From: Gammaproteobacteria bacterium
Lineage (GTDB): Bacteria; Pseudomonadota; Gammaproteobacteria; UBA4575
Assembly (NCBI GenBank): GCA_965242685.1
Contig: OZ251487.1
Span: forward strand, 417,199-481,198
Direction of reading: 5' to 3'
Length of the DNA: 64,000 bases
The notes beneath the pieces were generated by a model. That model made no database searches and had not been told where the DNA came from. It saw nothing but the letters and a program-made list of their open reading frames with translations. Position 1 is the first letter of the stretch. Every line of letters begins with the position of its first letter. The translations under genes and the position numbers were made by a program. Shown here piece after piece: positions 5,646 through 38,290 of the stretch.

Positions 5646-6295
5646 AGTTGAAACGTCTGCGGTGCTTGAATGCCGACGAGGGGTCTGAGACAGGTTTCAA
5701 ATAATCGGGTATGACTGACACCCTCCTCGTTTTTTTTGGATACGAGTTGTGCCTGCATGACCGGGGCGTGCCCGGTCACTATAAACATGCGCCCGTTTTT
5801 GGCAAGCCGCTCTTCAAACTCGTCCAGATATACCGGCATGGATGCGGAAACCACGACCGCATCGTATTGCCCGGCGTCATTGCTGTCGCTTAGGGCGTCA
5901 CCTCGTATATAATTGACGTTATTGATGGCCAGCCGTTTCAGGACGGATTGCGCCCGGCCGGAAAAATCGGCGTGATGTTCTATCGTGTCGACGTGCTTTC
6001 CCAGTTTGGCCAGACAAGCGGTTATAAACCCCGAACCTGTGCCAATCTCCAAAATTTTATCGTCGGGATTTATTTGCAGGGCTTGCAGCATTCGCGCTTC
6101 AACCTTTGGCGTCATCATAAATTGCTCATGTCCCAAGGGTACTTCCATGTCGGCAAAGGCCAGTTTTTGGTGCCGGTCGGGAACAAACAGCTCGCGTGGC
6201 GTTTCTGCAATGACTTTCAACACGTCGACGTCCGATACGTTCCACGGGCGTATTTGTTGTTCAATCATATTGAGTCTTGCCTGTTCGATGTCCAT
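5642..6295 (-). CDS. pcm: Protein-L-isoaspartate O-methyltransferase family protein
   Basis: 217 aa; SAM-binding motif ILEIGTGSGFITACLAKLG; commonly linked to tolC in gammaproteobacteria. Confidence 0.8.
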   Translation of the reverse strand: MDIEQARLNMIEQQIRPWNVSDVDVLKVIAETPRELFVPDRHQKLAFADMEVPLGHEQFMMTPKVEARMLQALQINPDDKILEIGTGSGFITACLAKLGKHVDTIEHHADFSGRAQSVLKRLAINNVNYIRGDALSDSNDAGQYDAVVVSASMPVYLDEFEERLAKNGRMFIVTGHAPVMQAQLVSKKNEEGVSHTRLFETCLRPLVGIQAPQTFQL

Positions 6296-6454: not shown

Positions 6455-7492
6455 TTGAGTGCAAGGAAAATACTCGTTATAGGGCCTGCCTGGATCGGTG
6501 ACATGGTCATGTCACAGAGCTTGTTCATGGCGCTGAAACACCGGTACCCGAACTGTGCCGTCGACGTCGTTGCACCGGCATGGTCTTCCCCCGTGCTTGC
6601 GCGTATGCCCGAGGTGCGGCGTATTATCGAAGTTGATATCGCACATGGTGAATTACGACTTGCTACACGCATACGGCTTGGTAGAAGTCTTCGCGGGCAA
6701 TACGACCAAGCCATCATTTTACCAAGATCATACAAATCTGCGTTGGTTCCATATTTTGCGAGGATTCCGAAACGTACCGCATATCGCGGTGAAATGCGTT
6801 ATGGCATTGTCAACGACGTGCGACGATCCGGCGGGAAAGCGACCGGTACTAAAGCCGTACAGCAATACGTAAATTTAAGCGAGCCATCCTCCGCGCACCG
6901 GGTAAAATTTTCGGATATTCATTTGCCGAGGCTGCGAGTGGATGAGAACAAGCGGCGTCAGGCGGCGTCAAGATTGGCCGTCAACGAGAAGACGCCTTCA
7001 ATTGCATTGATGCCGGGTGCCGAATTCGGCCCGTCAAAGCGTTGGCCTGCGGGATACTTCGGCGAATTAGCCTCCATGTTCATACGAGACGGCTTTGCCG
7101 TGTACATTTTCGGCTCATCCAGAGACCATGCAATCGGCGAAGAAGTCATCGCGTCCTCTTGCGGCGGTGGTGCGGTCAACTTGTGCGGAAAAACGAGTCT
7201 GGAAGAAGCGATTGATTTAATTTCACTGACGAAAGTCGCCGTCACCAACGATTCCGGATTGATGCACGTTGCGGCGGCGGTGGGGTGCCCCGTGGTTGCC
7301 GTCTATGGCTCAATTACGCCTGATTACACCCCGCCTTTGACTAAATTCGCACGGATTCGGTACTTGAACCTGGAGTGCAGTCCTTGTTGGCGGAAGCAGT
7401 GCCCCTATGGGCACTATAACTGCCTGCGTAACTTGACGGTCGGCAGCGTCTATCAAAGTGCGGGCGAGCTACTCGGCCGTGTCTCACCTTAG
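6455..7492 (+). CDS. waaF: ADP-heptose:LPS heptosyltransferase II
   Basis: N-terminus KILVIGPAWIGDMVMSQSLFMALKHRYP is the classic RfaF/WaaF signature; 345 aa. Confidence 0.85.
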   Translation: MSARKILVIGPAWIGDMVMSQSLFMALKHRYPNCAVDVVAPAWSSPVLARMPEVRRIIEVDIAHGELRLATRIRLGRSLRGQYDQAIILPRSYKSALVPYFARIPKRTAYRGEMRYGIVNDVRRSGGKATGTKAVQQYVNLSEPSSAHRVKFSDIHLPRLRVDENKRRQAASRLAVNEKTPSIALMPGAEFGPSKRWPAGYFGELASMFIRDGFAVYIFGSSRDHAIGEEVIASSCGGGAVNLCGKTSLEEAIDLISLTKVAVTNDSGLMHVAAAVGCPVVAVYGSITPDYTPPLTKFARIRYLNLECSPCWRKQCPYGHYNCLRNLTVGSVYQSAGELLGRVSP

Positions 7493-22985: not shown

Positions 22986-23079
22986 GCCCCTTCATTGGGG
23001 GTGATCTCCAAACACATCAAATATCGCATTGCGCACAACGTCGGGTGTAGTCCCCCTTCATTGGGGGTGATCTCCAAAC
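22986..23079 (+). CRISPR. Minimal CRISPR array: two 28-nt direct repeats (27/28 identical) flanking one 38-nt spacer
   Basis: Repeat 1 at 22986-23013 is gccccttcattgggggtgatctccaaac. Repeat 2 at 23052-23079 is cccccttcattgggggtgatctccaaac. Spacer at 23014-23051 is acatcaaatatcgcattgcgcacaacgtcgggtgtagt. The repeat has a CCCC-loop-GGGG hairpin and an AAAC 3' end like Cas13a direct repeats. The array lies 35 nt beyond the stop of the Cas13-like gene. Confidence 0.6.
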
Positions 23080-23114: not shown

Positions 23115-26100
23115 CTATCTTTTCCTTTGTGAAGGATTGTGCTTGTGTATATGACTCTTCCTCCGGTTTTGGTATTTTCTTTTTTGTGTTCCCTCAGCTT
23201 TTCCTCTGTTCTGATTTTTTCTGCCTGGAGTTTTATCGGGCAATTGAGCCTCGCCACCGAACAGATCGGCTACCATCTCGATGTACTTTTCACCGTGCAG
23301 GTCTTCTTTGACTTTATTGCCCAAGTGAGTGGCTTGCCTGGTCTTAACTGTTGCTCCTGTAAGTCGGTGTCCTTTCATCTCCCATTCCAGGACAAGTCCT
23401 TCGCGTGCCAGCATTTCCTTGATTGACCGGGTCACCGCGTTTTTCAGTTTGCGGTCGTAGGCCATCAGCTTGCGGGTGTCGTTGACGGCCTCGGTCAGGT
23501 TCAGGTCGGGTTTGTTGCTTTGCAACATGTTGAAGTGCATCAGCTTGTTGCGAATGGAGCGGGGATAGTCTTCACATCTATCATCCAGAAAATGTTTACC
23601 AAATACCTGTTTTAATTGTTCGAAAATCTTTTTTGCATCTCCTTTTTGCGATTTTCTAAGTGTATTGATCGCCTCAACAATTTGGCCATCCTTGAGATTC
23701 TTACGTCCATTTGAATTGAACACGTCATCCGGCCTTTTCCCTGAAAGGCTTATCAGCGCGAGCATTACAAAATACAGGTCGCGTTCCCACAGGCCGGCAT
23801 AGTCGGTCAGCCGTCCCAATACCCGCATTAGCAGGCGATGCAGACGCACGTGGTTGTTGAGACGGACGTGTGCCGCAAAATGCCGATGCTTTTCTATAGT
23901 TTTAAGTGTTTGGCGATAGTCTTTTTCTTTTTCTTTGGAAAATCTCTTTTTAACCCATTCATCATGCAATTTTTCCCGTTTTTTCTGTTGTTCGGCAATT
24001 TTATTTTCCGATTCGTCCGATTCGTCCAGCTTAAGCTTATTCACGTTTTCGGCTGTAATCGGGTGTTTCCGGAAAATTGGCATCAATGGTTTGAGGTCGC
24101 CGAACCGCCAGAGCTCCCGCAGGCCGCGCCAGGGTACCAGCTGTTTTTTTGTATTTGTATCCGATTCGGGGCAGGCACGGCGAAAAAGCTCCTCGGACTT
24201 GAACAGGTCTTTGAGTTCGCTGTCATAAATATTGATTGTCTCGTTCCCCTCAAACTTGGCGTCGTGCATATCGAGATAAAGACTGAATAGTTGTGCGAGG
24301 GGCTTGACCACCTCATCTTTCTCATCTTTGATAGATGATTTCCGTACAAGGATCGACCATTTGGAAAGCTGGTGCCGTAATTGGGCAATCGCATCGACGG
24401 GCACCAGATGAATGAGGAAGTAAAGAACGGCCTGCCAGTCTATTGCTTTGGTTTCATCTGGTGGTACTTTCTTCAGTGCTTTATCCAGAGAGCCGCACTC
24501 GTTTTTAAGCTCGTCCGTTACCCAGTTTAATTGGTTCTCTTTCAGGTAAGCCTTGAAGGCCTGTGCCACCACGTCGCACCGCAGGTCATCGAGGTATTTG
24601 GCCTGCTGGCGGGCCTTGTCAGCGTCGCTATCGTAGCCACGCTGCACGCGCAGTTCGGACGCTGTGCGAGCGGCAAGTTGATCGATGAAATCGGCAATCC
24701 CTTGGCCTTCTTCCAGGTGGACCTGGTCGGTAGCCTTGGCGACGGCAAGTTCGTCCTTATTTAATTTCTTTGCATCCTCAGTAGCGCGCTTCACGGCACG
24801 TTTAATCCATTGATTCAGGGCTTGTTTCGTTTGTTTTTCCAGCCATGCGGGGAAAGCGCGTTCGTATATTGCCTTTGCAGTGACGTACCGACACAGTTTG
24901 TCGGGCTGATCTTCAAGTTTGTCCCGCTTACCGGGCGGCGGCAGATGCAGGAGGTAAGGTTTCTTGCTCCAAGCGTTTTCCGCACGGGCGAGGACGCGAT
25001 TGAAGCGGGGCAACGGTGACAGCGATGTTTCTGCATTGACGATGGCCTTGATCAGCGCGTCGATCTTGCTTTGGTCGTAATACTTCTCAACCTGTGCCGC
25101 TTTAAGGTCTTTAATCAATTGTTCGTTGCGCTTGGTAAAATCGTGTTTCAGGAGTTTGTGTGTGGCGTCAATGGTGGCAGGGAAGTTGTTAAGGTTGTTG
25201 GTTAATGCCTCGATAAAGCGGTCACGTCCCTTGAAGTGAAACGCCGCGTGACGCAGTTCAGCCCACCCGTTCAGTGCCAGTTTCAGCACTTGATTTTTAA
25301 AGTCTTCATCACCCTTGAAGTAGTCATTCCGTTTGCCGAACAGGAGCGGCAGCTTCGGCAGCTTTTTTAGATAGGCCGATTCACAAAAATTCCCATCTGT
25401 TACTCCATCATTTTTGATATTGAGCAATATGTCCTCTTTAATGCGATTGTTCGGGTCTGCCCAGTCCTTCAACGTCCGTGCACCGAGCGCAATCGTATAA
25501 CGCCACACGCGCACGAAGGCCTCGTTGCGTTTGATTTCGGCTTGCCCTTCACTGGTTCGATAGTGGCTGTTTGTGATTGCCTCGGATTCGGGCCAGTGGT
25601 CGATGGCATGGCCGTTTTTGCCGGCTTCGTAATGGATGATTCTTCCCAGACGCACCAGGCCGTTGAGATCACGATTGCGCACCTTGTTTTTGACCAGTTG
25701 GAACAGTTTGTTCATGTCTTGCGGTAGAATGCGCGCCACGTTTTTCTTGTTATGTTTCTTAAGGATGCGGGTATAGGTATCCTTAATAGCGGCATGAAGC
25801 GCAAATAGTCTAGGATAGAGATCACGGGCTTCGGTAACGGCGAGCACTTCTCCGTCATCGCCTTTGAACAGCTCCCCATATTGCCCGTACAGAATCGGGG
25901 CAACATCGCGTACCGAGAACTTGCCTTTCTTACCTTCAGCCGCTCGATAAATCTGGCCTGCTACGTCACCGGCCTCTTTATATGCTTTTTCATCCTGGTC
26001 TGACCAGTCATATTCACCACCCGAAAATCCCGTCGGCAACGCCATTACGTTTTTGGTAATGCTTTCCGCCCTGGCCGCTATCAGCCCCTTACTCTTATTG

Positions 26101-26606
26101 GGTTGGCTAGGCTCTTTCCGATATTCTTTTTCATACAGGTGTTCGTATATCTTTCCCGCGATTTCTTCGGCCTCTTTGTCACCGATTTCGGCAGGTTTCT
26201 TGTCACCGACGAAGCGTCCATACCAACGGCCTTTTGGAGCTGGAGAATTCTTACAGTTTTCTTTCGGGTAAGGATGAATCTTTGACCACCACAACTTCCT
26301 GAGTTTTTCAAGCTCGTCGAAATTGTCCGCATTCTTTACCTTTAACAGACCGTTCTTTATCAAATAGCACCAGACGGCGTTACCGAGTGTCTCGCGCAGC
26401 TTGCGCTGTTCGGCGGAAGGTTTGCCGTTCCCACGGGGCTTGGCTGCGATCTTGTCAATGATGGATATCCATTGCTTAATGACGAGTTCAGGGTGTTCTT
26501 TTGCAAATTCTGCAACGTCCTTTGCATCCTTGTGGCCGGGATTTGGGCGGATTTTCCGTTTTCCTGTTGGGGTCTCGCTTCGACCGTATGGCTTGATAAT
26601 CAACAT
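23115..26606 (-). CDS. cas13a: Cas13a-like type VI CRISPR RNA-guided RNase (two HEPN R-x4-H motifs)
   Basis: 1163 aa. HEPN1 is ELRHAAFHF (R452/H457), encoded about 25236-25253. HEPN2 is SIRNKLMHF (R1019/H1024), encoded about 23535-23552. Size and motif spacing are close to LbuCas13a (1159 aa; R472/H477, R1048/H1053). The protein is Lys-rich and the gene AT-rich. A CRISPR-like mini-array is adjacent. Confidence 0.72.
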   Translation of the reverse strand: MLIIKPYGRSETPTGKRKIRPNPGHKDAKDVAEFAKEHPELVIKQWISIIDKIAAKPRGNGKPSAEQRKLRETLGNAVWCYLIKNGLLKVKNADNFDELEKLRKLWWSKIHPYPKENCKNSPAPKGRWYGRFVGDKKPAEIGDKEAEEIAGKIYEHLYEKEYRKEPSQPNKSKGLIAARAESITKNVMALPTGFSGGEYDWSDQDEKAYKEAGDVAGQIYRAAEGKKGKFSVRDVAPILYGQYGELFKGDDGEVLAVTEARDLYPRLFALHAAIKDTYTRILKKHNKKNVARILPQDMNKLFQLVKNKVRNRDLNGLVRLGRIIHYEAGKNGHAIDHWPESEAITNSHYRTSEGQAEIKRNEAFVRVWRYTIALGARTLKDWADPNNRIKEDILLNIKNDGVTDGNFCESAYLKKLPKLPLLFGKRNDYFKGDEDFKNQVLKLALNGWAELRHAAFHFKGRDRFIEALTNNLNNFPATIDATHKLLKHDFTKRNEQLIKDLKAAQVEKYYDQSKIDALIKAIVNAETSLSPLPRFNRVLARAENAWSKKPYLLHLPPPGKRDKLEDQPDKLCRYVTAKAIYERAFPAWLEKQTKQALNQWIKRAVKRATEDAKKLNKDELAVAKATDQVHLEEGQGIADFIDQLAARTASELRVQRGYDSDADKARQQAKYLDDLRCDVVAQAFKAYLKENQLNWVTDELKNECGSLDKALKKVPPDETKAIDWQAVLYFLIHLVPVDAIAQLRHQLSKWSILVRKSSIKDEKDEVVKPLAQLFSLYLDMHDAKFEGNETINIYDSELKDLFKSEELFRRACPESDTNTKKQLVPWRGLRELWRFGDLKPLMPIFRKHPITAENVNKLKLDESDESENKIAEQQKKREKLHDEWVKKRFSKEKEKDYRQTLKTIEKHRHFAAHVRLNNHVRLHRLLMRVLGRLTDYAGLWERDLYFVMLALISLSGKRPDDVFNSNGRKNLKDGQIVEAINTLRKSQKGDAKKIFEQLKQVFGKHFLDDRCEDYPRSIRNKLMHFNMLQSNKPDLNLTEAVNDTRKLMAYDRKLKNAVTRSIKEMLAREGLVLEWEMKGHRLTGATVKTRQATHLGNKVKEDLHGEKYIEMVADLFGGEAQLPDKTPGRKNQNRGKAEGTQKRKYQNRRKSHIHKHNPSQRKR

Positions 26607-26740: not shown

Positions 26741-27304
26741 ATGCGACAAGGTTTGTATCGAAGCATCGTGGTTGATCCGCCTTGGGATCAAGGCAAAACG
26801 GGGATTCGTTCCGCTCGTCCCAATCAGGGCGTTGATCTGGATTACCCTACGCTGACGCAAAACGAGATTTTAGAGATTGTTCGGCTGGATGAATGGGCTG
26901 CCGAGAATGCGTTTCTTTGGCTGTGGGCGACAAACAGCAGATCGCGCTCAAGCAAGAAGCCTATCCTTCAGCAGGCGTTTGAATTGATGGATGCTTGGGG
27001 GTTTCGATACTACACCATGCTTACATGGGATAAAAAAACCGGGCCTTGCCCATTCGGCCCTTATCAGATAACGACCGAACATTGTTTATTTGGCTATCGG
27101 GGGCAATGCAGGTTTGACAAACAATCTCTTGGCAAGATGAAAACCTGCTTTCATGCCCCCGTCACTCGGCACAGTGAAAAACCCGCGCTGTTTTACGATA
27201 ACGTCCGTAAATACTTTCCCTCCCCCAAGATTGACGTTTTTTCAAGAAGAACACATAGCGGCTTTGAAGGTTGGGGTTGGGAAGCCGAACAGGACGTTGC
27301 ATAG
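26741..27304 (+). CDS. MT-A70-family adenine N6-methyltransferase (DPPW motif)
   Basis: 187 aa; catalytic motif VVDPPWDQG near N-terminus; family size typical of small bacterial MT-A70 proteins; divergent from cas13a-like gene with 134-nt shared intergenic region. Confidence 0.8.
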   Translation: MRQGLYRSIVVDPPWDQGKTGIRSARPNQGVDLDYPTLTQNEILEIVRLDEWAAENAFLWLWATNSRSRSSKKPILQQAFELMDAWGFRYYTMLTWDKKTGPCPFGPYQITTEHCLFGYRGQCRFDKQSLGKMKTCFHAPVTRHSEKPALFYDNVRKYFPSPKIDVFSRRTHSGFEGWGWEAEQDVA

Positions 27305-28877: not shown

Positions 28878-29894
28878 ATGAAAGTAGAGGGTTTGGCAAT
28901 GAGATTCCGCACTGCCGTGACGGTTGCGGCTTTAGTATTGTTTGGTGCAGCGAATGACTTGCACGCCGACGATGTCCAAATTGGCCTTCAGTCCATATAC
29001 GTACCGTGGATCGTACAATTGGAAAATATCAAGGAACACGGTTTTGCCGGCAAGAATGTCGACTTCGTGAAAATCACCTCACCCGAAGAAGTGCTGGACG
29101 GTCTCGACTCGGGTGCCGTGGATATCGTGCTTGGGGGTAACGCGCTGGTCGCAGAGGGCTATAGCCGGGATATTGATCTGCAAGTTGTCTACATCTACGA
29201 CAATATCAACGATGCGGAAGCGCTGGTAGTGGATGATTCGATTACCGCACCCCAGGATCTAGTCGGCAAAACCATCGCAGTGCCCTTCAGTTCCACCACG
29301 CACTACCATCTGTTGTTTGCCTTGGAGCAGTTTAGAATCCCTACGGACGCTCTCACGATACTTAACCTGACACCACCGGAGATCGTCTCGGCTTGGGAAC
29401 GTGGCGATATCAACGGCGCGTTCATCTGGGACCCGACACTTGGGCGCATGAAGGAAACCGGGCACGTATTGTTGACTTCCAGAGATCTGACCAACTGGGG
29501 CAGGCCTACTTTCGACTCGATGATCGCATCGCGCACGTTTGCTGCGGAAAATTCCGATTTCGTTTGCCGGTGGGTCAAGATGTCGGCGGCGGCCGATGCC
29601 GACTATCGCATGAATCCGGCTACCTACGATCCGGGGACTGACAAGGCGATGGCAATTGCAAAGGGCAGCTCCGGTGATCCGGATCGCGTAGGCGAAGTGC
29701 TTGCACTGTACGAATATCCGACGTTGGAAGAGCAGGTATCCGCCACTTGGCTTGACGGTGGCGTACAGAGCGCATTACAGGCAACCGCCGAGTTCCTGAT
29801 GGCACAAGGCATACTTGACCGCCTGCCCGCCAGCTTTGCTGATGCCGCAACGCCGAAGTTTGCCCGAATGGTGCTTGACGGCGACTGCCGCTAA
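28878..29894 (+). CDS. ABC-transporter periplasmic substrate-binding protein, NMT1/TauA/SsuA (sulfonate/taurine) family, orphan
   Basis: 338 aa; signal peptide; TauA-like blocks (GGNALVAEGY, VGKTIAVPFSSTTHYHL); no permease/ATPase genes adjacent. Confidence 0.7.
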   Translation: MKVEGLAMRFRTAVTVAALVLFGAANDLHADDVQIGLQSIYVPWIVQLENIKEHGFAGKNVDFVKITSPEEVLDGLDSGAVDIVLGGNALVAEGYSRDIDLQVVYIYDNINDAEALVVDDSITAPQDLVGKTIAVPFSSTTHYHLLFALEQFRIPTDALTILNLTPPEIVSAWERGDINGAFIWDPTLGRMKETGHVLLTSRDLTNWGRPTFDSMIASRTFAAENSDFVCRWVKMSAAADADYRMNPATYDPGTDKAMAIAKGSSGDPDRVGEVLALYEYPTLEEQVSATWLDGGVQSALQATAEFLMAQGILDRLPASFADAATPKFARMVLDGDCR

Positions 29895-30052
29895 CGCCAC
29901 TTCAGCTAGACCCGCATCAAGCCACAAAGATTCACTCAATAAAAAACGCTGGCATTAGTGGCCAGCGTCGGGCCGGGGCACGAAAGCCACCGGTGGGGTG
30001 AGTAATATATTATATTAAACTGGCTGTAAGTCAAAGGAAACTTCACCTGGCA

Positions 30053-32290
30053 ATGGATCTAACCGACCGCGACAAGCAAGAGATTATCCGTCATCTTGAG
30101 GCGGACCAACCGTTGCCCGACCGGTATCGGTTTTTACTGTTTGACGACAAGCGGCAGGCGGAATTGGTATGGAACGGCAAGACCAACGAAGTATGTAACG
30201 TAGTATTGCCGTTTCAAACCATAGAACACGTCGACGAGCCGCGTGTCGAGAGTCCCGATGATCTCCCTTTAATGGACGACCTATTCGCCGTAGACGCACG
30301 CGGCCGACAGCTAAAGGGCTGGGAAAACAAGCTGATATGGGGCGACAACAGGCTGGTACTGTCCAGTCTCAAGGGCGGCGCCTTACGCGAGGAAATTGAA
30401 AAGCAGGGCGGCATCAAGCTCATCTACATCGACCCGCCGTTTGATGTCGGGGCGGACTTTTCCATGGACATTGAAATCGGCGGCGGAAACTTCACCAAGG
30501 CGCCGAGCGTATTGGAGGAGATCGTCTATCGGGATACCTGGGGGCAAGGTGCGGACTCGTTCATCGCCATGTTGTACGAGCGGTTGATCTTGATGCGCGA
30601 CCTACTGGCCGAAGACGGGAGTATTTACGTCCACTGCGATTATAGGATGAACGGCTATATCCGCCTGGTGTTGGATGAAGTGTTTGGGAAGGGTGCGGGT
30701 GCTGGCTATGTAAATGAGATTGTTTGGCAGGGTGCGATTGGGGAGACATCATCTAAAAACAAAAAATTTATCAAGTCCCACGAAACCATTTATTTATACC
30801 GCAAAAGCGGAGTGCTGTGGAATGAGATATTTCAAACATATAGCGAGGCCAGCCAAAGTTTATATCGTTACTCCGATGACAAAGGGCGTTACCGAATCGG
30901 ACCGACAAATAAACCCGGTACGGGGGGCTATTTCTACGATTTAGGTTACGGGGAAATATGCCCGCAAAGGGGATATAGGATGCCGATTGAGACCGCTCTC
31001 GCTTGGATTGAAAGTGGTGAGTTGATTATTGAAAAAGGGAAAGTACCCGGACGTAAGTTGTATATGGGTGAGGGGGTCAGATGTCGTGACGTTTGGGTGG
31101 ATATAAGAGCGACGCAAGGCAATGAATATTTGCGTTACCCCACCCAAAAACCCGAAGCCCTGTTGGAACGGATCATCAAGGCATCCAGCAACGAGGGTGA
31201 TGTGGTGGCGGACTTCTTTTGCGGTTCGGGCACGTTGGCGGCGGTGGCGGAGAAGCTGGGGCGCAAATGGATCTGCGGAGACTTGGGCAAGTTTGCCGTA
31301 CACACGACCCGCAAGCGGATGATCGGCGTCCAGCGCCGGTTGAAGGCCGAGGGCAAGGACTATCGCGCCTTTGAAGTCCTGAATCTCGGCAAATATGAAC
31401 GACAGCACTACATCGGCGTCAATGCCGGCTTGCATGAAGCGGGGCGCGCGACCCAACAGACGGCGAAAGAACGTGCCTTTGTCGATCTAATTTTGCGCGC
31501 GTACAAGGCCGAGCGGGTAGACAATTTCTCATGCTTTCACGGTAAGAAACAGGGCAGGCTGGTGACCGTGGGGCCGGTTAACCTCCCAATATCCCGTCAG
31601 TTTGTCGAGGAGATCGTTCAAGAATGTAAGAAAAAACACATCACAAAGGTAGACCTGTTGGGTTTCGAGTTTGAGATGGGCCTGTTTCCGCAGCGATTGA
31701 ACGAGGCAAAAGAACAGGGCATCGACCTTGTACCCAAATACATCCCCCGCGATGTATTCGACAAACGCGCCGTGGAGAGAGACCAGGTAAGGTTCCACGA
31801 CGTGGCGTTTATCGAGATCAAAACCCACGTGAAGGACGGAACGGTAGCGGTGGAACTCACCGATTTCTCCGTCTACTACCATCAGGGTTCGGTAGAAAAT
31901 GCCGAACAAACCCTGAGAAACAGAGGCAGTAAAGTGGTGGTGAAAGCGGGGCGGGTGGTGAAGGTATCCAAGGATCAACACGGCGCGATCACCCGTGAGG
32001 TGCTGACGAAAAAGTGGACGGATTGGGTAGACTACTGGTCGGTGGACTTCGACTACGAAAGCAAACGGGAAATCATCCGCGAACGGAACCAGGCGGGCGA
32101 ATGGGTAGAACGATGGACGGGCGACTACGTGTTTGAAAACGAGTGGCAAAGCTTCCGCACCCGCCAAGATCGGTCGCTGGAATGGACCACGCCCCCGCAC
32201 AAATGCCCGCCGGGAAACTACAAGATCGCCGTCAAGGTGGTTGACGTATTCGGTAACGACACCATGACGGTGGCGGAGGTAAAGGTGTGA
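30053..32290 (+). CDS. mod: Type III restriction-modification system methyltransferase subunit (Mod), adenine-specific
   Basis: 745 aa; catalytic motif IV YIDPPFDVGADF followed by motif I FFCGSGTLAAVAEKLG (beta-class order typical of Type III Mod); variable target-recognition middle region. Confidence 0.85.
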   Translation: MDLTDRDKQEIIRHLEADQPLPDRYRFLLFDDKRQAELVWNGKTNEVCNVVLPFQTIEHVDEPRVESPDDLPLMDDLFAVDARGRQLKGWENKLIWGDNRLVLSSLKGGALREEIEKQGGIKLIYIDPPFDVGADFSMDIEIGGGNFTKAPSVLEEIVYRDTWGQGADSFIAMLYERLILMRDLLAEDGSIYVHCDYRMNGYIRLVLDEVFGKGAGAGYVNEIVWQGAIGETSSKNKKFIKSHETIYLYRKSGVLWNEIFQTYSEASQSLYRYSDDKGRYRIGPTNKPGTGGYFYDLGYGEICPQRGYRMPIETALAWIESGELIIEKGKVPGRKLYMGEGVRCRDVWVDIRATQGNEYLRYPTQKPEALLERIIKASSNEGDVVADFFCGSGTLAAVAEKLGRKWICGDLGKFAVHTTRKRMIGVQRRLKAEGKDYRAFEVLNLGKYERQHYIGVNAGLHEAGRATQQTAKERAFVDLILRAYKAERVDNFSCFHGKKQGRLVTVGPVNLPISRQFVEEIVQECKKKHITKVDLLGFEFEMGLFPQRLNEAKEQGIDLVPKYIPRDVFDKRAVERDQVRFHDVAFIEIKTHVKDGTVAVELTDFSVYYHQGSVENAEQTLRNRGSKVVVKAGRVVKVSKDQHGAITREVLTKKWTDWVDYWSVDFDYESKREIIRERNQAGEWVERWTGDYVFENEWQSFRTRQDRSLEWTTPPHKCPPGNYKIAVKVVDVFGNDTMTVAEVKV

Positions 32291-33576
32291 AAACAAACAC
32301 GATACAACAGATTGAAGAACAGGTAAATCAAGTGACAGAAGCCTTGAAGGGCTTTGTTCTTCGTCGGCATGAAGAGGATCGCTATGGCAAGGAAGATGAG
32401 TACACGGCTCAATCCTTGAAGGCTGATATAAAGGCAATCCTCACGGACATACGTGGCTTGGTAAAAGCGCATAACAAGTTCGTGAGGCTGTCGACTTTTG
32501 TAGAAAGAGATCTGATACGTGATTCTCTGCAAAATATGTCTAGTTCACTAAATTCAGAAAATTATTCTAATGCTGCCCATTATCTGGAAAAAATAAAGGA
32601 TATTATTCGCAGTTATAACGTAAGAGGTTCATCGGAATCTGAGGAAGTTCTTAAGGAGAGACTTGCTCAGATCAATAGTAAATATACGGACGCCGAAGAA
32701 AATATCGATGAGATCAAAAGGGTCAAAGAAACAGCCGAGCAACAGGCGCAGCAGCTTCAATCCATAAAAGAACAGCTTGAGTTCATTGACGGCAGAATTT
32801 ACGAGTCACGAGAAAAAGCCGATCAAATCGAAAAGTTGCAGACTCAATCTCAGAGTAATAGCGATGATATACATAGTGTCTTTACATCCGCAAAAAGTCG
32901 CGAAGAAATTATCAACAGCTTTGTTCAACGGGTTGAAGAGAGACAAAAACAGTTAGATACGCAGGAACAATCCACCGCTGCGTATCAAGAGAAGCTGGAG
33001 TCGTTTCAGGAAGCGCATGAAGAAAAACTTGAAGCAGCAGAGAAGCTGATAGAAGAGGCGCGGGCGGCTCTTGAACTTACGACTGCGGCAGGGGTCAGTG
33101 CGGCATTCACTGCACGCTACAATGAGGAAAAGGAAAGGGACCAGGAGATGTTGGATCGTTGGTTGAGAGGAGCACTTTTATTTATGAGCATCGCTATAGG
33201 AATGGGGATCTGGGTGGTATTGGGCAATAAGGATATCGGGCTTGGCCTGGCGATATCTCGCATAACCATTATACCGGTCGTACTTTCCGGTGCCTGGTTT
33301 TGTGCCGCACAATATGTGAGGTATCGGAACATACGAGAGGACTATGGCTATAAAGCCGTTTTGTCCAAGTCCATGATAGCTTTCATGGATCACTTGCCTG
33401 AAGATGTAAAAAGGGATTATCTGAATACGGTTCTGAAGGAAATCCACAAGAATCCTCTGCGTAAAAGATACGATGATTCAGATAGGAAAAATATTAGGAC
33501 ACCAGACGATGCGCGGGTAGGCACTTCCGGGTCATCAGATGATTCAGATAGAAAAAATACTGGGGCATCAGATTAA
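32287..33576 (+). CDS. Coiled-coil protein with two C-terminal transmembrane helices, inserted between mod and res (possible accessory defense/abortive-infection effector)
   Basis: 429 aa; about 280 aa heptad-rich charged N-region (EEQ.., KEQLEFIDGRIYESREKADQIEKLQ), then LLFMSIAIGMGIWVVLG and ITIIPVVLSGAWFCAAQYV hydrophobic helices; start overlaps mod stop (GTGTGA); C-terminal DDSDRKN motif duplicated. Confidence 0.6.
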   Translation: MKTNTIQQIEEQVNQVTEALKGFVLRRHEEDRYGKEDEYTAQSLKADIKAILTDIRGLVKAHNKFVRLSTFVERDLIRDSLQNMSSSLNSENYSNAAHYLEKIKDIIRSYNVRGSSESEEVLKERLAQINSKYTDAEENIDEIKRVKETAEQQAQQLQSIKEQLEFIDGRIYESREKADQIEKLQTQSQSNSDDIHSVFTSAKSREEIINSFVQRVEERQKQLDTQEQSTAAYQEKLESFQEAHEEKLEAAEKLIEEARAALELTTAAGVSAAFTARYNEEKERDQEMLDRWLRGALLFMSIAIGMGIWVVLGNKDIGLGLAISRITIIPVVLSGAWFCAAQYVRYRNIREDYGYKAVLSKSMIAFMDHLPEDVKRDYLNTVLKEIHKNPLRKRYDDSDRKNIRTPDDARVGTSGSSDDSDRKNTGASD

Positions 33577-33706
33577 TCCCTTTCTACCCATCAGTACCAG
33601 GACGTTGACTTATCGGCAGATAGAGGAAGTGGTAAAGAAACAAACCGATGATCCGATCATTTATGCAGGTATCCCGCCGGTCACCTTGCTAAAATAGTGT
33701 TTTCCG

Positions 33707-36376
33707 ATGGCGCTCCACCCCAAATTTCCTGATTCTCCCCACGCCGTTCTCGATCCTGAAGTTCGCTGGTTTCCCGCCGATGAGACGGTGCGCGAGCAGA
33801 CGATGGACAAGTTGATGCCGCCACTGGTGGCGGAACTGCGGCGCAAGGTAAAGGAATTTCGAGACGCCGGCTATGCGGGCGCAAGCAATACCGGCAGGAG
33901 CTTGTTGAATTGGTGGTTCAAGGAATCGCACCCACAGCCACAATCGGACGGCGGCACGACGGAGTTTCGGTATTACTTCGCCCAGCGCGAGGCTATGGAG
34001 ACCATCATTTATCTGTATGAGGTGGCCGGGGCGAAGGATAAGTTTGACTTGATGCGCTTCGATTCCATCGGGCTGGTATCCACCGGCATGTTTGACGAGA
34101 CCTGGCGGCGTTACGTGATCAAGATGGCGACCGGCACCGGCAAGACTAAGATCATGAGTTTGGTGTTGGCGTGGAGCTTCTTCCACAAACTGTACGAAGA
34201 AGGCTCAAGCCTGTCGCGCAATTTTCTGATGATTGCTCCGAACATCATCGTGTTGGACCGCCTCTACAAAGATTTTCAGGGTTTGCGGATCTTCTATGAT
34301 GATCCGGTGATGCCCGACAACGGCTATGGAGGACAAAACTGGCGGGATGACTTTCAGCTAACGTTGCATTTGCAGGACGAGGTACAGGTGACGCACCCCG
34401 TGGGAAACATCTTTTTGACTAATGTCCATCGGGTTTATTGCGGCGAGGATATCCCGCCTTCGCCGGGAGACGAGAACACGATGGATTATTTTCTCGGCAC
34501 TCGTCCCGTCGGTGCGACCACCGATTCTAAAATAGACTTGGGAATGATCGTGCGCGACATTGACGAGTTGATGATCCTAAACGATGAGGCGCACCATATC
34601 CACGACGCGAAGCTCGCCTGGTTCAAGTCGGTTGAAGACATCCATAACCGGCTGCTGCAAAAGGGCGGCGAGTTGAGCTTGCAGGTGGACGTGACCGCAA
34701 CGCCGAAACACAATAACGGCGCGATCTTTGTGCAAACGATAGCGGATTACCCGTTGGTGGAGGCGATCTCTCAGAACGTGGTCAAACATCCGGTGTTGCC
34801 GGATGCGCCAAGTCAGGCAAGGTTGGAGGAAAGACAGAGCACAAAATTCACCGAGAAATACGCCGATTATCTTGATTTGGGCGTGACTGAGTGGCGCAAG
34901 GCTTACGGTGAACATGAGAAGCTCGGCAAGAAAGCGATCCTGTTCGTGATGACGGATGACACGAAAAATTGTGATGAAGTTGCCGGGTATTTGGAGAGTC
35001 ACTATCCCGATTTGCAAGACGCGGTATTGACCATTCATACCAAGAACAACGGCGAGATTTCCGAAGTGTCTCACGGCAAGAAGAAAGAAGAGCTTGAGGA
35101 ACTTCGCAAACAGGCCAACGAGATTGATTCACTGAAGAATCCTTACAAGGCCATCGTGTCGGTGCTGATGCTCAAGGAGGGCTGGGACGTGCGCAACGTC
35201 ACTACTATCGTCGGCCTGCGGGCGTATTCGGCCAAGAGCAATATCCTACCGGAGCAGACGCTTGGCAGGGGGCTGCGCAAGATGTATCGGAATGACACTG
35301 AGGAGAAAGTGAGTGTGGTCGGTACCGATGCCTTCATGGAGTTTGTGGAAGGCATACAGGCGGAAGGGGTGGAACTGGAGCGCGAGGCTATGGGAGAAGG
35401 CACTAAGCCCAAGGCGCCGCTGGTGATAGAGGTTGATAGTGAAAAGGATCTGGATGCGCTGGATATTGAAATTCCGGTACTGACGCCTCGTTTATATCGG
35501 GAGTACAAAAACCTGGCCGATCTGAACCTTGAAACAATGGAGTTTAAAATGCTGGAATATCGGCAGTTTAACGAAGAACAGCAGCGCGAGATCGTCTTCA
35601 GGGACGTGACTACGGGCGAGGTGACGCATATCACCGTGCTGGACAGCGCGGGGGTGGGCGATTACCGCAGCGTCATCGGCTATTTTGCGCAGACCATGAT
35701 GAGGGAGCTACGACTGGTAAGTGGCTATGATGCTTTATACGGCAAGGTCAAGGCGTTTATTCGGGATCACCTGTTCGGCAAAACGGTTGCGCTGGAATCT
35801 GCCAATACGTTGAGAAATTTGTCGGAGATGGTAGCCACCAAGACGGTGCTTGAGACTTTCAAAAAGGCGATCAATCACCTGATGGTACGGGAAAGGGAGG
35901 GTGCGGAGATTCATGATTCCATCAAGCTACGCCAGATGCGCCCGTTCGTGATAAAAGAGCGACAGTATTTATCTCCCCGCAAGAGTGTATTTAACCGGAT
36001 TGTCGGCGACAGTCGGCTTGAACTGGAGTTTGCCAAGTTTTTGGAGCGATGCAATGACGTATCCGCGTATGCCAAAAATTATCTGGCGGTTCACTTCAAG
36101 CTGGATTACGTAAATGCGAGTGGCGAACTTACCAATTATTACCCTGATTTTGTCGTCAAGCTGACCGATGGCCGCATGGTCGTCGTCGAGACCAAAGGGC
36201 GCGAAGGACTGGACGTACCGCGAAAAGTGGCACGCTTGAGGCGGTGGTGTGAAGACGTCAACGCGGTGCAGGACGTGACATGGAGTTTCGTCTACGTGGA
36301 TGAGGAAGGGTTTCACAAGTATTCACCCAAGTCTTTCGCGGGACTTTTGGCCGGTTTTCGGGAGTATAAAGGGTGA
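33707..36376 (+). CDS. res: Type III restriction endonuclease subunit (Res), SF2 helicase plus PD-(D/E)xK nuclease
   Basis: 889 aa; helicase motif I MATGTGKTKIM, motif II LNDEAHHI (DEAH), motif VI region; C-terminal nuclease motif YPDFVVKLTDGRMVVVETKGRE. Confidence 0.85.
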   Translation: MALHPKFPDSPHAVLDPEVRWFPADETVREQTMDKLMPPLVAELRRKVKEFRDAGYAGASNTGRSLLNWWFKESHPQPQSDGGTTEFRYYFAQREAMETIIYLYEVAGAKDKFDLMRFDSIGLVSTGMFDETWRRYVIKMATGTGKTKIMSLVLAWSFFHKLYEEGSSLSRNFLMIAPNIIVLDRLYKDFQGLRIFYDDPVMPDNGYGGQNWRDDFQLTLHLQDEVQVTHPVGNIFLTNVHRVYCGEDIPPSPGDENTMDYFLGTRPVGATTDSKIDLGMIVRDIDELMILNDEAHHIHDAKLAWFKSVEDIHNRLLQKGGELSLQVDVTATPKHNNGAIFVQTIADYPLVEAISQNVVKHPVLPDAPSQARLEERQSTKFTEKYADYLDLGVTEWRKAYGEHEKLGKKAILFVMTDDTKNCDEVAGYLESHYPDLQDAVLTIHTKNNGEISEVSHGKKKEELEELRKQANEIDSLKNPYKAIVSVLMLKEGWDVRNVTTIVGLRAYSAKSNILPEQTLGRGLRKMYRNDTEEKVSVVGTDAFMEFVEGIQAEGVELEREAMGEGTKPKAPLVIEVDSEKDLDALDIEIPVLTPRLYREYKNLADLNLETMEFKMLEYRQFNEEQQREIVFRDVTTGEVTHITVLDSAGVGDYRSVIGYFAQTMMRELRLVSGYDALYGKVKAFIRDHLFGKTVALESANTLRNLSEMVATKTVLETFKKAINHLMVREREGAEIHDSIKLRQMRPFVIKERQYLSPRKSVFNRIVGDSRLELEFAKFLERCNDVSAYAKNYLAVHFKLDYVNASGELTNYYPDFVVKLTDGRMVVVETKGREGLDVPRKVARLRRWCEDVNAVQDVTWSFVYVDEEGFHKYSPKSFAGLLAGFREYKG

Positions 36377-36464
36377 GGATGCCATACGATACGAGATGCC
36401 CCGCAAGCCAACATGAGCCGGCCATATTTAGAGGTGATATGATGGCGGCTACGGAAATAAAAAA

Positions 36465-37802
36465 ATGAATATCAAAAAACTGATCGTTGAGGATGTCCGC
36501 TGCTTTGCGGGCAGACAGGAACTTGAGATACGCCCCATCACTTTTCTAGTGGGTGAAAACAGTACCGGAAAGTCTACCGCCCTCGCTTGTTTGCAGACGC
36601 TGCTGGACATTATTAGTTTCCCGACTAATTTCCCGAGTAGGTTCCCGATTAGGTTCCCGTATGCCGACCTGGATTTCAATAATGAGCCTTATAATTTGGG
36701 GGCATTTGCCGATATTGTCAGGGTCTCAAGACCAAGGAAAGAGAGTTTTCGGTTGGGCGCTGAACTATTTCACGAGAAAGAAACTTTGGAATATTCTTTA
36801 ACTGTAACGGAAAGAGACGAAGGTTCTGAACCCATTATCCAGGAAATGAGGATGCTTTTTACCGATGGCAACGAAATTGTTCTCAAAAAAGATGATCGGC
36901 AAGTAAAAAATCAATCCAATAAAAGAAATTTTCAAATCCAGCATGTAGAAGGAGGTAAGAAAAAGTTTGTTATTATTCCACTAGGCTCACCTACTGTGAT
37001 GAGAGGTCTATTTATGGACTTATTTTATAGGGGATATAATGAGCAGGCTCTGACGTCAGAAGAAGAGGAACTACGTAATTTTTTGCAAAAGTACCGAACA
37101 GTACTTTCCTCTCGAAATTCTCCTAAGGCGCATAGTTTTGCACCGATTCGTTCCAAGCCGCAGCGTACGTATGACCCCATTAAAGAGGGTATCAGCCCTG
37201 AAGGCAGTGAAATGCCTATGGTGCTGATGAATATATCCGGAACGGGAGAGAAGCAATGGGGCACACTGAAAAAAAGACTGATCAGGTTTGGTAAATCTTC
37301 AGGCCTGTTTACGGATATCTATGTCAGAAAACTTGGAAAATCAAGCGACCCGTTCCAGCTACAGATCAAGGTCAGGGGGCCAAAGGTCAATCTTATAGAT
37401 GTGGGGTACGGCGTCAATCAAATCCTGCCTATTTTGGTACGTATATTTAACACTGAGAGAGAAGGTACAACTTTTTTAATGCAGCAACCGGAAGTGCATC
37501 TGCATCCCAAGGGTCAGGCGGAATTGTCTTCCCTATTGATCGAGATTGCTAAACAGCAGAAACAAAATTTTGTTATCGAGACGCACAGCGATTACATGGT
37601 TGACCGTGCGCGTATTGACATCAGGGACGGGAAAATACCGCCGGATGATGTCTCATTGATTTACTTTGAACCTTGCGGGGGATATGTCAAAGTGCACAAT
37701 ATCAAGTTTGATGAGCAGGGGAATTTAGAGGGTGCCCCGAACACCTTCCGACAGTTTTTTCTTGATGAGTCGGACAGATTTCTCGGGCTTGATGAAAGTT
37801 AG
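36465..37802 (+). CDS. AAA15/ABC-type ATPase (OLD/AbiEii-like ATP-binding protein)
   Basis: 445 aa; Walker A LVGENSTGKST; ABC-like Walker B/D-loop QQPEVHLHP and H-loop IIETHSDY; AT-rich. Confidence 0.8.
   Translation: MNIKKLIVEDVRCFAGRQELEIRPITFLVGENSTGKSTALACLQTLLDIISFPTNFPSRFPIRFPYADLDFNNEPYNLGAFADIVRVSRPRKESFRLGAELFHEKETLEYSLTVTERDEGSEPIIQEMRMLFTDGNEIVLKKDDRQVKNQSNKRNFQIQHVEGGKKKFVIIPLGSPTVMRGLFMDLFYRGYNEQALTSEEEELRNFLQKYRTVLSSRNSPKAHSFAPIRSKPQRTYDPIKEGISPEGSEMPMVLMNISGTGEKQWGTLKKRLIRFGKSSGLFTDIYVRKLGKSSDPFQLQIKVRGPKVNLIDVGYGVNQILPILVRIFNTEREGTTFLMQQPEVHLHPKGQAELSSLLIEIAKQQKQNFVIETHSDYMVDRARIDIRDGKIPPDDVSLIYFEPCGGYVKVHNIKFDEQGNLEGAPNTFRQFFLDESDRFLGLDES
36618..36665 (+). repeat. Tandem 12-nt repeat x4 inside ATPase gene (ttcccgactaat / ttcccgagtagg / ttcccgattagg / ttcccgtatgcc) encoding FPTN-FPSR-FPIR-FPYA
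   Basis: Directly visible in sequence; in-frame, preserves reading frame. Confidence 0.8.
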
Positions 37803-37805
37803 GCC

Positions 37806-38225
37806 ATGTGCATCATCCTGGATACCAACCTGTATGGAGCTTTTATTAATTCGAATAATGAAGACATGCAACCAGTGAGAGATTGGATGAATCGCAAAAA
37901 TGGAAAAATCGCTTATTCTCCGGTGGGGAAAATTGCGGAAGAACTAAAGGGGAAGATGAAGGGCAAGTTTGAGGTATATGAAAAGGCTGGAAAACTCAAA
38001 AGGTTTTCTAAGGAGGATGTAGAGCGAAAAAAAGAAGGATTGGAAGGTTTGATATCCGATGATCCGGATATCATAGCACTGGCTCAAGTCTCCAACGTTA
38101 AAGTATTGGTTTCAAGGGACAAAAAGTTACATAAAGATTTCACAAACACAAACATCATCGAGCAAGGAAAGATTTATCAAACGAAGAGGCATGAGCATCT
38201 TCTCAGAAAGGATACATGCCCGTAA
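37806..38225 (+). CDS. Small PIN-domain-like putative nuclease, translationally coupled to the upstream ATPase
   Basis: 139 aa; N-terminal ILDTN (first PIN acidic residue), SDDPDIIALAQ (PIN D-x-I-A motif), VLVSRDKKL (fourth acidic position); starts 4 nt after ATPase stop. Confidence 0.55.
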   Translation: MCIILDTNLYGAFINSNNEDMQPVRDWMNRKNGKIAYSPVGKIAEELKGKMKGKFEVYEKAGKLKRFSKEDVERKKEGLEGLISDDPDIIALAQVSNVKVLVSRDKKLHKDFTNTNIIEQGKIYQTKRHEHLLRKDTCP

Positions 38226-38290
38226 ATCCAACCGTTTGAGACTTTAAAGCAAAAACAGCAAGGCAGGCCGCAAGCCCCACTACTAAAACA

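Follow-up and report, generated by a model that had tools for sequence, protein, structure and literature searches.

Introduction

Type III restriction-modification (R-M) systems hemi-methylate an asymmetric site and, for their ATP-dependent cleavage, require two sites in inverse orientation. Genes embedded in defense operons are usually defense genes themselves, a tendency named 'guilt-by-embedding' in a survey of Hma, BREX, DISARM and Type I R-M operons, with Type III systems outside its scope (Payne, Hughes, Fineran and Jackson, bioRxiv 10.1101/2024.01.29.577857). TgvAB lies inside the Type I R-M operon of Vibrio cholerae VPI-2 (PMC11411939), and the anticodon nucleases PrrC and RloC are embedded in Type Ic R-M loci (review PMC12707154). 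In Ronin, HsdM, HsdS and RonA provide decoy immunity, under a proposed logic in which RonA is restrained by the methyltransferase complex and freed by anti-restriction proteins, and the Type III R-M system EcoR22I responds to Ocr by inducing cell death (Silas et al., bioRxiv 10.1101/2023.04.06.535777). Here, we analyze a Type III operon found in a 64,000-nucleotide (nt) stretch of a gammaproteobacterial genome of the UBA4575 lineage (assembly GCA_965242685.1, contig OZ251487.1, positions 417,199 to 481,198 of the forward strand), hereafter the window, in which a gene for a 429-amino-acid (aa) membrane protein, the middle gene, separates the methyltransferase gene mod from the restriction gene res.

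That restriction operons can house defense genes is known, and such embedding has been a fruitful source of new immune systems; it has been surveyed in the four system types named above, and we found no description of it for Type III systems in the literature searched. As far as the libraries and papers searched go, the mod|res junction as a Type III cargo slot bearing traces of cassette exchange, the unnamed membrane-protein family that favors the position after a specificity gene in Type I, IIG and III systems, and the present locus are new. We propose that the middle gene is a horizontally acquired cassette whose product may act as a membrane-targeting defense effector.

An Intact Type III Operon Interrupted by a Coupled Gene

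All three genes are read on the forward strand. mod (30053-32290) is predicted to encode a 745-aa Type III beta-class N6/N4 DNA methyltransferase in which DPPF at residue 127 precedes FCGSG at residue 389 (motif IV before motif I), with an immunoglobulin-like extension at the C-terminal end and matches to N6_N4_Mtase in Pfam (E 1.7e-41) and MTase_III in PADLOC (7.4e-111). res (33707-36376) is predicted to encode an 889-aa Type III restriction subunit made of a superfamily 2 (SF2) helicase and a C-terminal PD-(D/E)xK nuclease, with GTGKT at residue 143, DEAH at 293, QTLGRGLR at 517 and PDF at 813 followed by ETK at 828; it matches ResIII in Pfam (1e-14) and REase_III in PADLOC (6.6e-21) and gives sub-threshold matches to RE_endonuc (2e-4, below the Pfam cut-off) and to the BPTD_3080 family (1e-81, below its cut-off). 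The catalytic motifs of both proteins agree with those of seven relatives. Mod aligns over its full length with its relatives at 54-70% identity and Res over residues 1-888 with 80 metagenomic relatives at 71-77%, the nearest relatives of the locus being metagenome-assembled genomes (MAGs) of uncultured Gammaproteobacteria and one Logan assembly. An initial annotation, made from the DNA alone, had considered both genes intact by their motifs; family matches and end-to-end alignments bear this out, and the open reading frame (ORF) list and translations reproduce exactly its coordinates for mod, the 429-aa ORF, res and the 130-nt gap.

The order of the motifs in Mod and the pairing of helicase and nuclease motifs in Res are those of Type III enzymes, and the canonical adjacency of mod and res is lost, since 1,416 nt interrupt the operon. 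To judge from these motifs, the departure from the Type III norm lies in the operon layout and not in the enzymes.

The middle gene (32287-33576), defined from the ORF list, its homologues and their alignment, belongs to an uncharacterized family. Its GTG start (32287-32289) overlaps the TGA stop of mod (32288-32290) in a 4-nt GTGA, and a Shine-Dalgarno sequence, GGAGG (32275-32279, forward strand), read from the sequence, lies inside mod, 7 nt before the GTG (sequence around 32287: GGAGGTAAAGGTGTGAAAAC). The start call is validated by 26 homologues whose N-termini begin at the equivalent residue and align from the GTG onward (MKTxTIQQIEEQ). These signals show the middle gene to be translated from the mod transcript through predicted stop/start coupling, as the initial annotation had put forward.

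The spacer between the middle gene and res (33577-33706, 130 nt, forward strand) contains neither a sigma-70-like promoter nor an intrinsic terminator, and the counts of such sites across the region equal chance; a promoter in this gap, which had been considered earlier, was therefore not found. The spacer forms no stable RNA fold, being less stable than its shuffles (z +1.58), and matches nothing in Rfam. Its length is not conserved either, as the homologue lies 15 nt from res in one related locus (L004) and 3 nt in another (L005). The res gene of the window has no recognizable Shine-Dalgarno sequence (33680-33709: …GCTAAAATAGTGTTTTCCGATG), unlike relatives with contiguous mod and res, in which GGGAGG stands 6-8 nt ahead of the res ATG at a TAATG stop/start overlap. 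The insertion of a cassette may have reduced the translation of Res relative to Mod. The spacer also aligns weakly with the junction between the 3' end of mod and the 5' end of the middle gene (score 37 versus 19 +/- 3.5 for shuffled sequences, with 1 in 500 reaching 37), which is only suggestive of a decayed copy of that junction; the repeat finder reported no direct repeats flanking the cassette in the window, where this gapped similarity is all that was seen.

Could the insertion have inactivated the operon and left mod or res to decay? The missing Shine-Dalgarno sequence of res and the lack of a promoter-like site in the gap, unlike the arrangement of the relatives, would fit such a remnant, as would two loci of the family that have lost res (L058 and L001). 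Yet mod and res are full-length, with all catalytic motifs intact, no frameshift, no internal stop and 54-77% identity end to end with their relatives, and L004 and L005 show the same three-gene layout with intact genes. A frameshifted or inactive res, envisaged beforehand as the mark of a degraded locus, is thus not what the sequence holds. We regard the absent Shine-Dalgarno sequence as a caveat for Res expression and not as evidence of decay, and the remnant explanation as largely refuted at the sequence level and extremely improbable.

Diverse Cargos at the mod|res Junction

A census of the junction was made in the 80 metagenomic loci closest by Res (71-77% identity), 67 of which have Mod upstream. 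The two genes are contiguous in 34 of the 67, where the mod stop overlaps the res ATG as TAATG or TGATG with GGGAGG before it, and a gap of 69-128 nt separates them in 3. In the other 30 (45%), 0.5-3.8 kb of other genes occupy the junction, with at least 14 kinds of cargo distinguished by clustering and Pfam. KilA-N is found in 10 loci and Bro-N in 4; DUF488, Schlafen/AlbA_2 with HATPase_c_4, HATPase_c with PIN, PDDEXK_3 and GIY-YIG occur in 2 loci each; and RhuM, Zeta toxin, a Pol-beta nucleotidyltransferase (NTase) with HepT, an AAA_21/AAA_15 ATPase, AAA with Peptidase_S8, DUF4160 with DUF2442, and an unknown 265-aa protein are each found once. In this Type III clade, then, the place between mod and res is a slot for variable cargo. 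The earlier picture of a normally contiguous pair split by an insert holds as far as contiguity is concerned, and fails in treating the split as a one-off.

This census bears directly on the idea that the middle protein is a non-toxic structural or regulatory accessory, either a membrane tether placing Mod and Res where phage DNA enters or a timer of Res assembly. Such a role would suit the scaffold-like shape of the modeled protein, with its membrane hairpin, long cytoplasmic stalk and distal head, the coupling of its expression to mod, and the position of the family between modification and restriction genes in three R-M types. However, because same-clade relatives either have no insert (34 of 67) or carry unrelated cargos (30 of 67), the R-M system does not need the middle protein. 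Many family members, moreover, have no R-M neighbor, and the gene is compositionally foreign to its operon. We consider an accessory function very unlikely.

Foreign Composition and Traces of Cassette Exchange

The GC content at third codon positions (GC3) is 0.43 in the middle gene, against 0.66 in mod and 0.67 in res, and the middle gene is in this respect foreign to both. A DNA match in a near relative (L057) further indicates that it travels with part of mod: positions 867-2211 of that locus match window positions 32225-33507 at 76% nt identity, the match starting 62 nt inside the 3' end of mod, although L057 has no mod at that position and its homologue of the middle gene instead follows an ATPase gene and a gene for a 139-aa protein. 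The 3' stub of mod that accompanies the middle gene elsewhere (32225-32290, forward strand) would thus be the upstream homology arm of the cassette. Similar fragments of the Mod C-terminus occur in two further loci, immediately before the homologue in L030 and after it in L058.

The most elaborate arrangement was encountered in a Leptonemataceae MAG (L001; CBDHEM010000071.1, 1-11260), where four cargo units stand behind one intact Mod, in the order HATPase_c with small ORFs, AAA+Peptidase_S8, GmrSD and the homologue of the middle gene. The HATPase_c cargo directly follows the intact mod, and each of the last three is preceded by a Mod C-terminal segment; between GmrSD and the final stub stands a 48-aa 5' fragment of res, the complete gene being absent from the locus. 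This looks like the stacking of cassettes by unequal recombination at the 3' end of mod. Given the mod stubs that flank cassettes in L057, L058, L001 and L030, we infer that recombination through conserved sequences, those of the 3' end of mod and also of the 5' end of res, exchanges and stacks the cassettes.

On a larger scale, mod, the middle gene, res, the ATPase gene and the 139-aa gene make up an island (approximate limits 29889-38278, by comparison with L057) located between convergent genes for an NMT1-like substrate-binding protein (SBP) and a Cys/Met pyridoxal phosphate (PLP) enzyme. Since the SBP and PLP genes of L057 lie only 4 nt apart (7240-7248) and are 88% and 94% identical to those of the window, the island of the window is best read as an insertion. 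Short duplicated fragments of the 3' region of the PLP gene in L057 (~750-866 and 5943-6045) were also seen, which hints at a recombination site at the 3' end of that gene.

A Membrane-Protein Family Without a Name

We recovered 64 full-length homologues of the middle protein, at 28-61% identity. A C-terminal profile run against 1.84 billion representatives retrieved 201 clusters at E<=1e-30, or 331 when the threshold was relaxed to E<=1e-10; almost all of these proteins are 410-455 aa long, with the module at ~255-410. The family is defined by a signature consisting of the head motifs YG.E.EY and F..LS...ER at the N-terminus, a coiled coil, two transmembrane (TM) segments and an invariant WFCAxQY..N..EDYxYK..S...F...DPL, and the window protein has every invariant column of a 27-sequence alignment. 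Judged by these searches, the family is rare and its architecture fixed. The C-terminal two-TM module was also considered as a portable domain borne by varied sensors, a candidate that was rejected because the best 150 of 1,361 matches had the same architecture or were fragments.

No family assignment was obtained in Pfam (E<=1 over 27 members), NCBIfam, PHROGs or PADLOC v2.0.0. LmuB, SpiroCoCo, SMC, tape measure, XhlA and 8xMP matched far below cut-offs, as noise of coiled-coil or hydrophobic nature. The only PADLOC matches of the window protein, LmuB (2.6e-6) and PbeC, both fall on the coiled-coil region, with no match to the HEC and PDC models, and Pfam, NCBIfam and PADLOC gave no P-loop or ABC match. 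Holin-like matches likewise fell well short of the cut-offs, with E-values of 0.025 (XhlA, window protein), 0.00092 (XhlA, best member) and 0.025 (Phage_holin_6_1, best member). SLATT families were found neither among the Pfam hits of the window protein (E<=1) nor among the 25 families matched most often across the 27 members. A profile search of Protein Data Bank (PDB) sequences matched only tropomyosin, a chemoreceptor (MCP-type) and GCN4, and Foldseek with the full model found nothing usable in the PDB (best E 0.16, IncA). The initial annotation had allowed that the ORF might lack conservation or have a clear housekeeping homologue; it has 64 homologues, and none is of housekeeping type in Pfam, NCBIfam, PHROGs, PADLOC or the PDB.

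A genomic scan with one genome per species gave 56 loci, in Gammaproteobacteria, Deltaproteobacteria, Leptonemataceae, Nitrospirales, Melioribacteraceae and, for the most part, Bacteroidota. The single phage-labeled member (L141, 3080-4330; PP438423.1, Microcystis phage Mwe-JY31, 22.2 kb) is full-length, with 416 aa and E 1e-56 against the family hidden Markov model (HMM). A serine-recombinase-like gene is nearby, and the features examined in this stretch of the record (7 of its 18) are all annotated as hypothetical. By eye, we take its neighbors to be MazG-like and DUF2075-like genes.

This distribution can be set against the view that the middle gene is a selfish or mobile-element passenger, such as a toxin-like or addiction gene, or else one for a membrane or superinfection-exclusion protein, tolerated at a permissive junction. 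Toxin-antitoxin modules do figure among the alternative cargos (Zeta toxin, NTase/HepT, PIN, DUF4160/DUF2442), some members adjoin integrases or recombinases, one occurs in the phage-labeled record, the gene is of foreign composition, and insertion sequence (IS) elements flank the L058 locus. Against this view stands a fixed 410-455 aa architecture that is under strong purifying conservation in at least five phyla; no antitoxin-like partner is conserved beside the family members, and the family has no member among the 72,556 plasmids of PLSDB and one among 50,697 phage records. The boundary between selfish toxin-antitoxin and abortive-infection genes is, besides, a blurred one, so that this explanation overlaps with the one we favor. 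As a separate account, it strikes us as distinctly unlikely.

Architecture of the Middle Protein

An AlphaFold2 model built on the 27-sequence alignment is all-helical, with a mean predicted local distance difference test (pLDDT) of 74. Residues 1-115 (32287-32631, forward strand, as for all segments below) are predicted to form a four-helix-bundle head, a candidate sensor or interaction domain; folded alone, residues 1-125 give a four-helix bundle with a small hairpin at pLDDT 91 and a predicted template modeling (pTM) score of 0.83. In the model, a stalk follows at residues 116-265 (32632-33081), a single long helix or coiled coil of ~150 residues whose length varies within the family through indels. 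Kyte-Doolittle hydropathy (19-residue windows, values up to 2.12) places a first TM segment at residues ~293-313 (33163-33225) and a second at residues ~317-344 (33235-33318), which in the alignment ends in the invariant WFCAxQY. The two TM segments described in the initial annotation are thus recovered, and its coiled coil of about 280 aa gives way to the bundle and the helix of ~150 residues.

The loop between the TM segments is short and charged residues precede the first and follow the second, so that both termini are probably cytoplasmic. The best-conserved blocks of the family flank this hairpin. TAxGISAAF..RY stands just before the first TM segment, and the most conserved block of all, WFCAxQY..(K/R)N..EDYxYK..L.KS...F, spans residues 337-366 (33295-33384), predicted to be cytoplasmic, with W337, F338, C339, A340, Y343, N348, D352-Y-x-Y-K, S362, F366 and P390-L invariant in the alignment. 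The second TM segment is followed by a conserved segment of ~50 aa, also predicted to be cytoplasmic, and then by a disordered tail (residues 389-429, pLDDT below 50). A 35-nt direct repeat (33472-33506 and 33538-33572, within 33472-33572; 86% identity, 66-nt spacing) doubles the peptide DDSDRKN in this tail, and the homologues lack the tail extension.

Genomic Neighborhoods of the Family

The context of each of 57 loci was called with locally propagated HMMs. R-M genes are linked to the family in 26 of them, with an R-M gene immediately upstream in 17, and the genes concerned code for the methylase or specificity component of systems of three types (I, IIG and III). Upstream same-strand neighbors match Methylase_S (9), N6_Mtase and HsdM_N (6 and 5), Eco57I (6), N6_N4_Mtase (4) and MmeI (2) in Pfam, and downstream same-strand neighbors include ResIII (6), SWI2_SNF2 and HsdR domains as well as Fic, DUF4145, Abi_2 and SocA. 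Counted from the HsdS, Type IIG or Mod-like gene that precedes it, the family member lies 5-24 nt away in 11 of the 17 loci and overlaps by 4 nt in the window, the remaining spacers being wider or unresolved by ORF calls.

Comparison of synteny among the homologous Type III loci shows that only L004 and L005 repeat the order mod-middle gene-res, with intact genes (Mod 70% and 56%, Res 69% and 60% identity). In L002, mod and res lie a few genes downstream of the homologue, and in L001 Mod is upstream of it. L058 has the order IS-Mod-homologue, with the same 4-nt overlap as the window and no res. In Type I loci, the homologue stands after HsdS and before HsdR (L059/L060, L034, L035, L036, L048 and L021); the order in the metagenome loci L059/L060 is HsdS'-HsdM-Fic-HsdS-X-DUF3800-HsdR-YgjP, where X is the family member. 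Members that are not linked to R-M genes stand alone in defense islands or mobile elements. A neighbor-joining tree resolves context-coherent clades: one is of Type III and contains the window, one is of Type I and from Flavobacterium, one is of Type IIG, and others consist of stand-alone members. Type I linkage arises in at least four places in the tree. The family is therefore not specific to Type III systems, as its members follow HsdS in Type I systems, follow Type IIG enzymes, or stand alone.

Other genes were observed in these neighborhoods. An AAA_14/DUF4143 ATPase gene lies directly upstream of Mod in L002 (11652-13067), L004 (6356-7762) and L005 (a 997-aa ORF) and is absent from the window, and the Mod match of L002 comes in two pieces (query residues 1-596 and 596-745), suggesting a frameshift. 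Cas9-type genes with HNH_4 and RuvC_III domains occur a few kb from a family member in L059/L060 (16658-17326) and L020 (5476-7560); in these two unrelated gammaproteobacterial loci, they fit a defense-island setting.

The preference for the place behind a specificity or methylase gene raises the possibility that the middle protein guards the R-M system, in the manner of Ronin or PrrC: it would be held inactive by Mod2 (by HsdM2S in Type I systems) and released or activated once that complex is struck by a phage anti-restriction protein, Ocr or ArdA for instance, or by another insult, leading to death or growth arrest of the infected cell. In 13 of the 17 loci, the family member directly follows an HsdS, Mod or Type IIG gene (by a 4-nt overlap or 5-24 nt) and precedes the restriction gene, which is the place of prrC in EcoprrI (PMC12707154). 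The gene also resembles ronA, which encodes a small TM effector caged by HsdMS (bioRxiv 10.1101/2023.04.06.535777), and L058, which retains mod and the middle gene and has lost res, recalls the 'masterless' layout of Ronin. In addition, R-M linkage recurs across several clades of the family, and the clades track the R-M type, as co-evolution with a partner predicts. Cassette exchange through homologous flanks would, however, account for this last pattern just as well. Roughly half of the loci lack a nearby R-M gene, and in L057 the gene follows the ATPase pair and not mod. One head domain would, furthermore, have to recognize such unrelated partners as Type I HsdMS, Type IIG enzymes and Type III Mod, and the protein resembles neither PrrC nor RonA in sequence or structure. 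On balance, we hold a guardian role to be possible though unlikely.

A broader form of this idea, which we put forward as speculation and consider rather improbable, would make the whole family a general guardian of R-M systems. Its head would dock on the methyltransferase or specificity module of Type I, IIG and III enzymes, disabling of that module by a phage anti-restriction protein or DNA mimic would be relayed by the stalk to the hairpin, which would oligomerize, and the membrane potential would collapse, the mod|res junction being a dedicated recombination-driven slot for such backup effectors. If true, the family would constitute a large and widespread Ronin-like layer of backup across R-M types.

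Neighboring Genes in the Window

res is followed on the forward strand by a two-gene unit (36465-38225) that encodes an ABC-type AAA_15/AAA_21 ATPase (36465-37802) and the 139-aa protein (37806-38225). The ATPase matches PDC-M55A (5e-44), NsnB (2e-42) and HEC-03B (2e-30) in PADLOC, and the 139-aa protein matches nothing in any library. Their GC3 values, 0.46 and 0.44, are low like that of the middle gene. A three-gene system uniting them with the middle gene was considered and rejected, as no locus other than L057 repeats the adjacency.

Farther away, the window contains a full-length Cas13a gene (23115-26606, reverse strand; PADLOC Cas13a, E 8e-216), just past the 3' end of which lies a minimal array of clustered regularly interspaced short palindromic repeats (CRISPR; 22987-23079), with two identical 27-nt repeats 66 nt apart and one spacer. 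A gene for a 187-aa MT-A70-family methyltransferase (26741-27304, forward strand) divergently adjoins Cas13a, which gives a single-spacer Type VI-A locus next to an MT-A70 methylase. A functional tie between the middle gene and Cas13a was rejected, for two housekeeping-type genes intervene and no homologous locus has the pairing.

Proposed Role of the Middle Protein

In the view that we favor, horizontal transfer brought the 429-aa gene into the recurrent mod|res slot as a cassette of one gene, and this cassette would move between loci by recombination with the conserved 3' end of mod as homology arm. Its product, co-expressed with Mod, would be a membrane-acting abortive-infection or backup defense effector: the head or the stalk may sense a cue of infection, upon which the hairpin and its conserved motif would oligomerize and damage the inner membrane. 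The architecture of the protein, its neighbors and the nature of the alternative cargos all argue for such an effector role. As about half of the members have no adjacent R-M gene, the family probably works on its own, and the R-M operon would serve mainly as an expression platform and safe harbor. We assign this reading of the middle gene as an autonomous embedded effector a probability of about 50%.

Several observations weigh against it. The family is absent from all 30 slots that are filled in the 80 loci closest by Res, so that its link to this R-M clade is sporadic. Some members lie between housekeeping genes (PriA, fumarase, YhdP/PmbA), a setting compatible with a non-defense role. The AlphaFold confidence of the membrane part is low (pLDDT 55-65), and oligomerization and membrane damage are purely inferred steps. 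The suggestion that the insert was a hitchhiking accessory or abortive-infection-type effector on the R-M operon accordingly survives in part: a conserved, foreign and translationally coupled gene is what the locus contains, and the framing as a single, Type III-only occurrence has to be given up.

The middle gene is a concrete and clonable candidate for a membrane-acting anti-phage effector, possibly a guard of restriction enzymes. Should its product prove inert, the cargo-slot observation would still aid the annotation of Type III loci.

Comparison with Known Systems

Several described systems share some of the features of the present locus. SLATT-type and other two-TM effectors of conflict systems are said to have been described by Burroughs et al. 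in 2015. The middle protein is like them in its C-terminal TM pair with a conserved flanking helix and in its defense-island context, and differs in that its Pfam hits at E<=1 include no SLATT family and that the module of its family is not fused to other sensors. PrrC and RloC occupy the same position as the family in its Type I loci, after hsdS and before hsdR, and the equivalent position in the window is that between mod and res. The shared concept would be that of a latent suicide effector coupled to R-M; PrrC and RloC are, however, soluble proteins combining an ABC ATPase with a tRNase, and the middle protein is membrane-anchored, with neither an NTPase motif nor a nuclease domain.

Ronin likewise has a membrane-protein gene tightly linked to methylase and specificity genes, and the mod and middle gene of L058, without res, come close to its layout. 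RonA, of ~61 aa, has one predicted TM segment, while the middle protein has 429 aa, a folded head, a long stalk and two TM segments, and the two share no sequence similarity. Moreover, hsdR is absent from Ronin, whereas res is present and intact in the window, and half of the middle-gene family is not linked to R-M genes. EcoR22I shows that a Type III mod-res pair can unite restriction with a suicide response, but there the death response belongs to the Mod-Res complex itself and no membrane gene is embedded.

TgvAB differs from the middle protein in being a soluble GmrSD-like nuclease pair. The embedded genes surveyed by Payne et al. resemble the middle gene in that a foreign gene is nested in a restriction operon, with a cargo that varies from one relative to the next and consists mostly of defense, toxin-antitoxin and abortive-infection genes.

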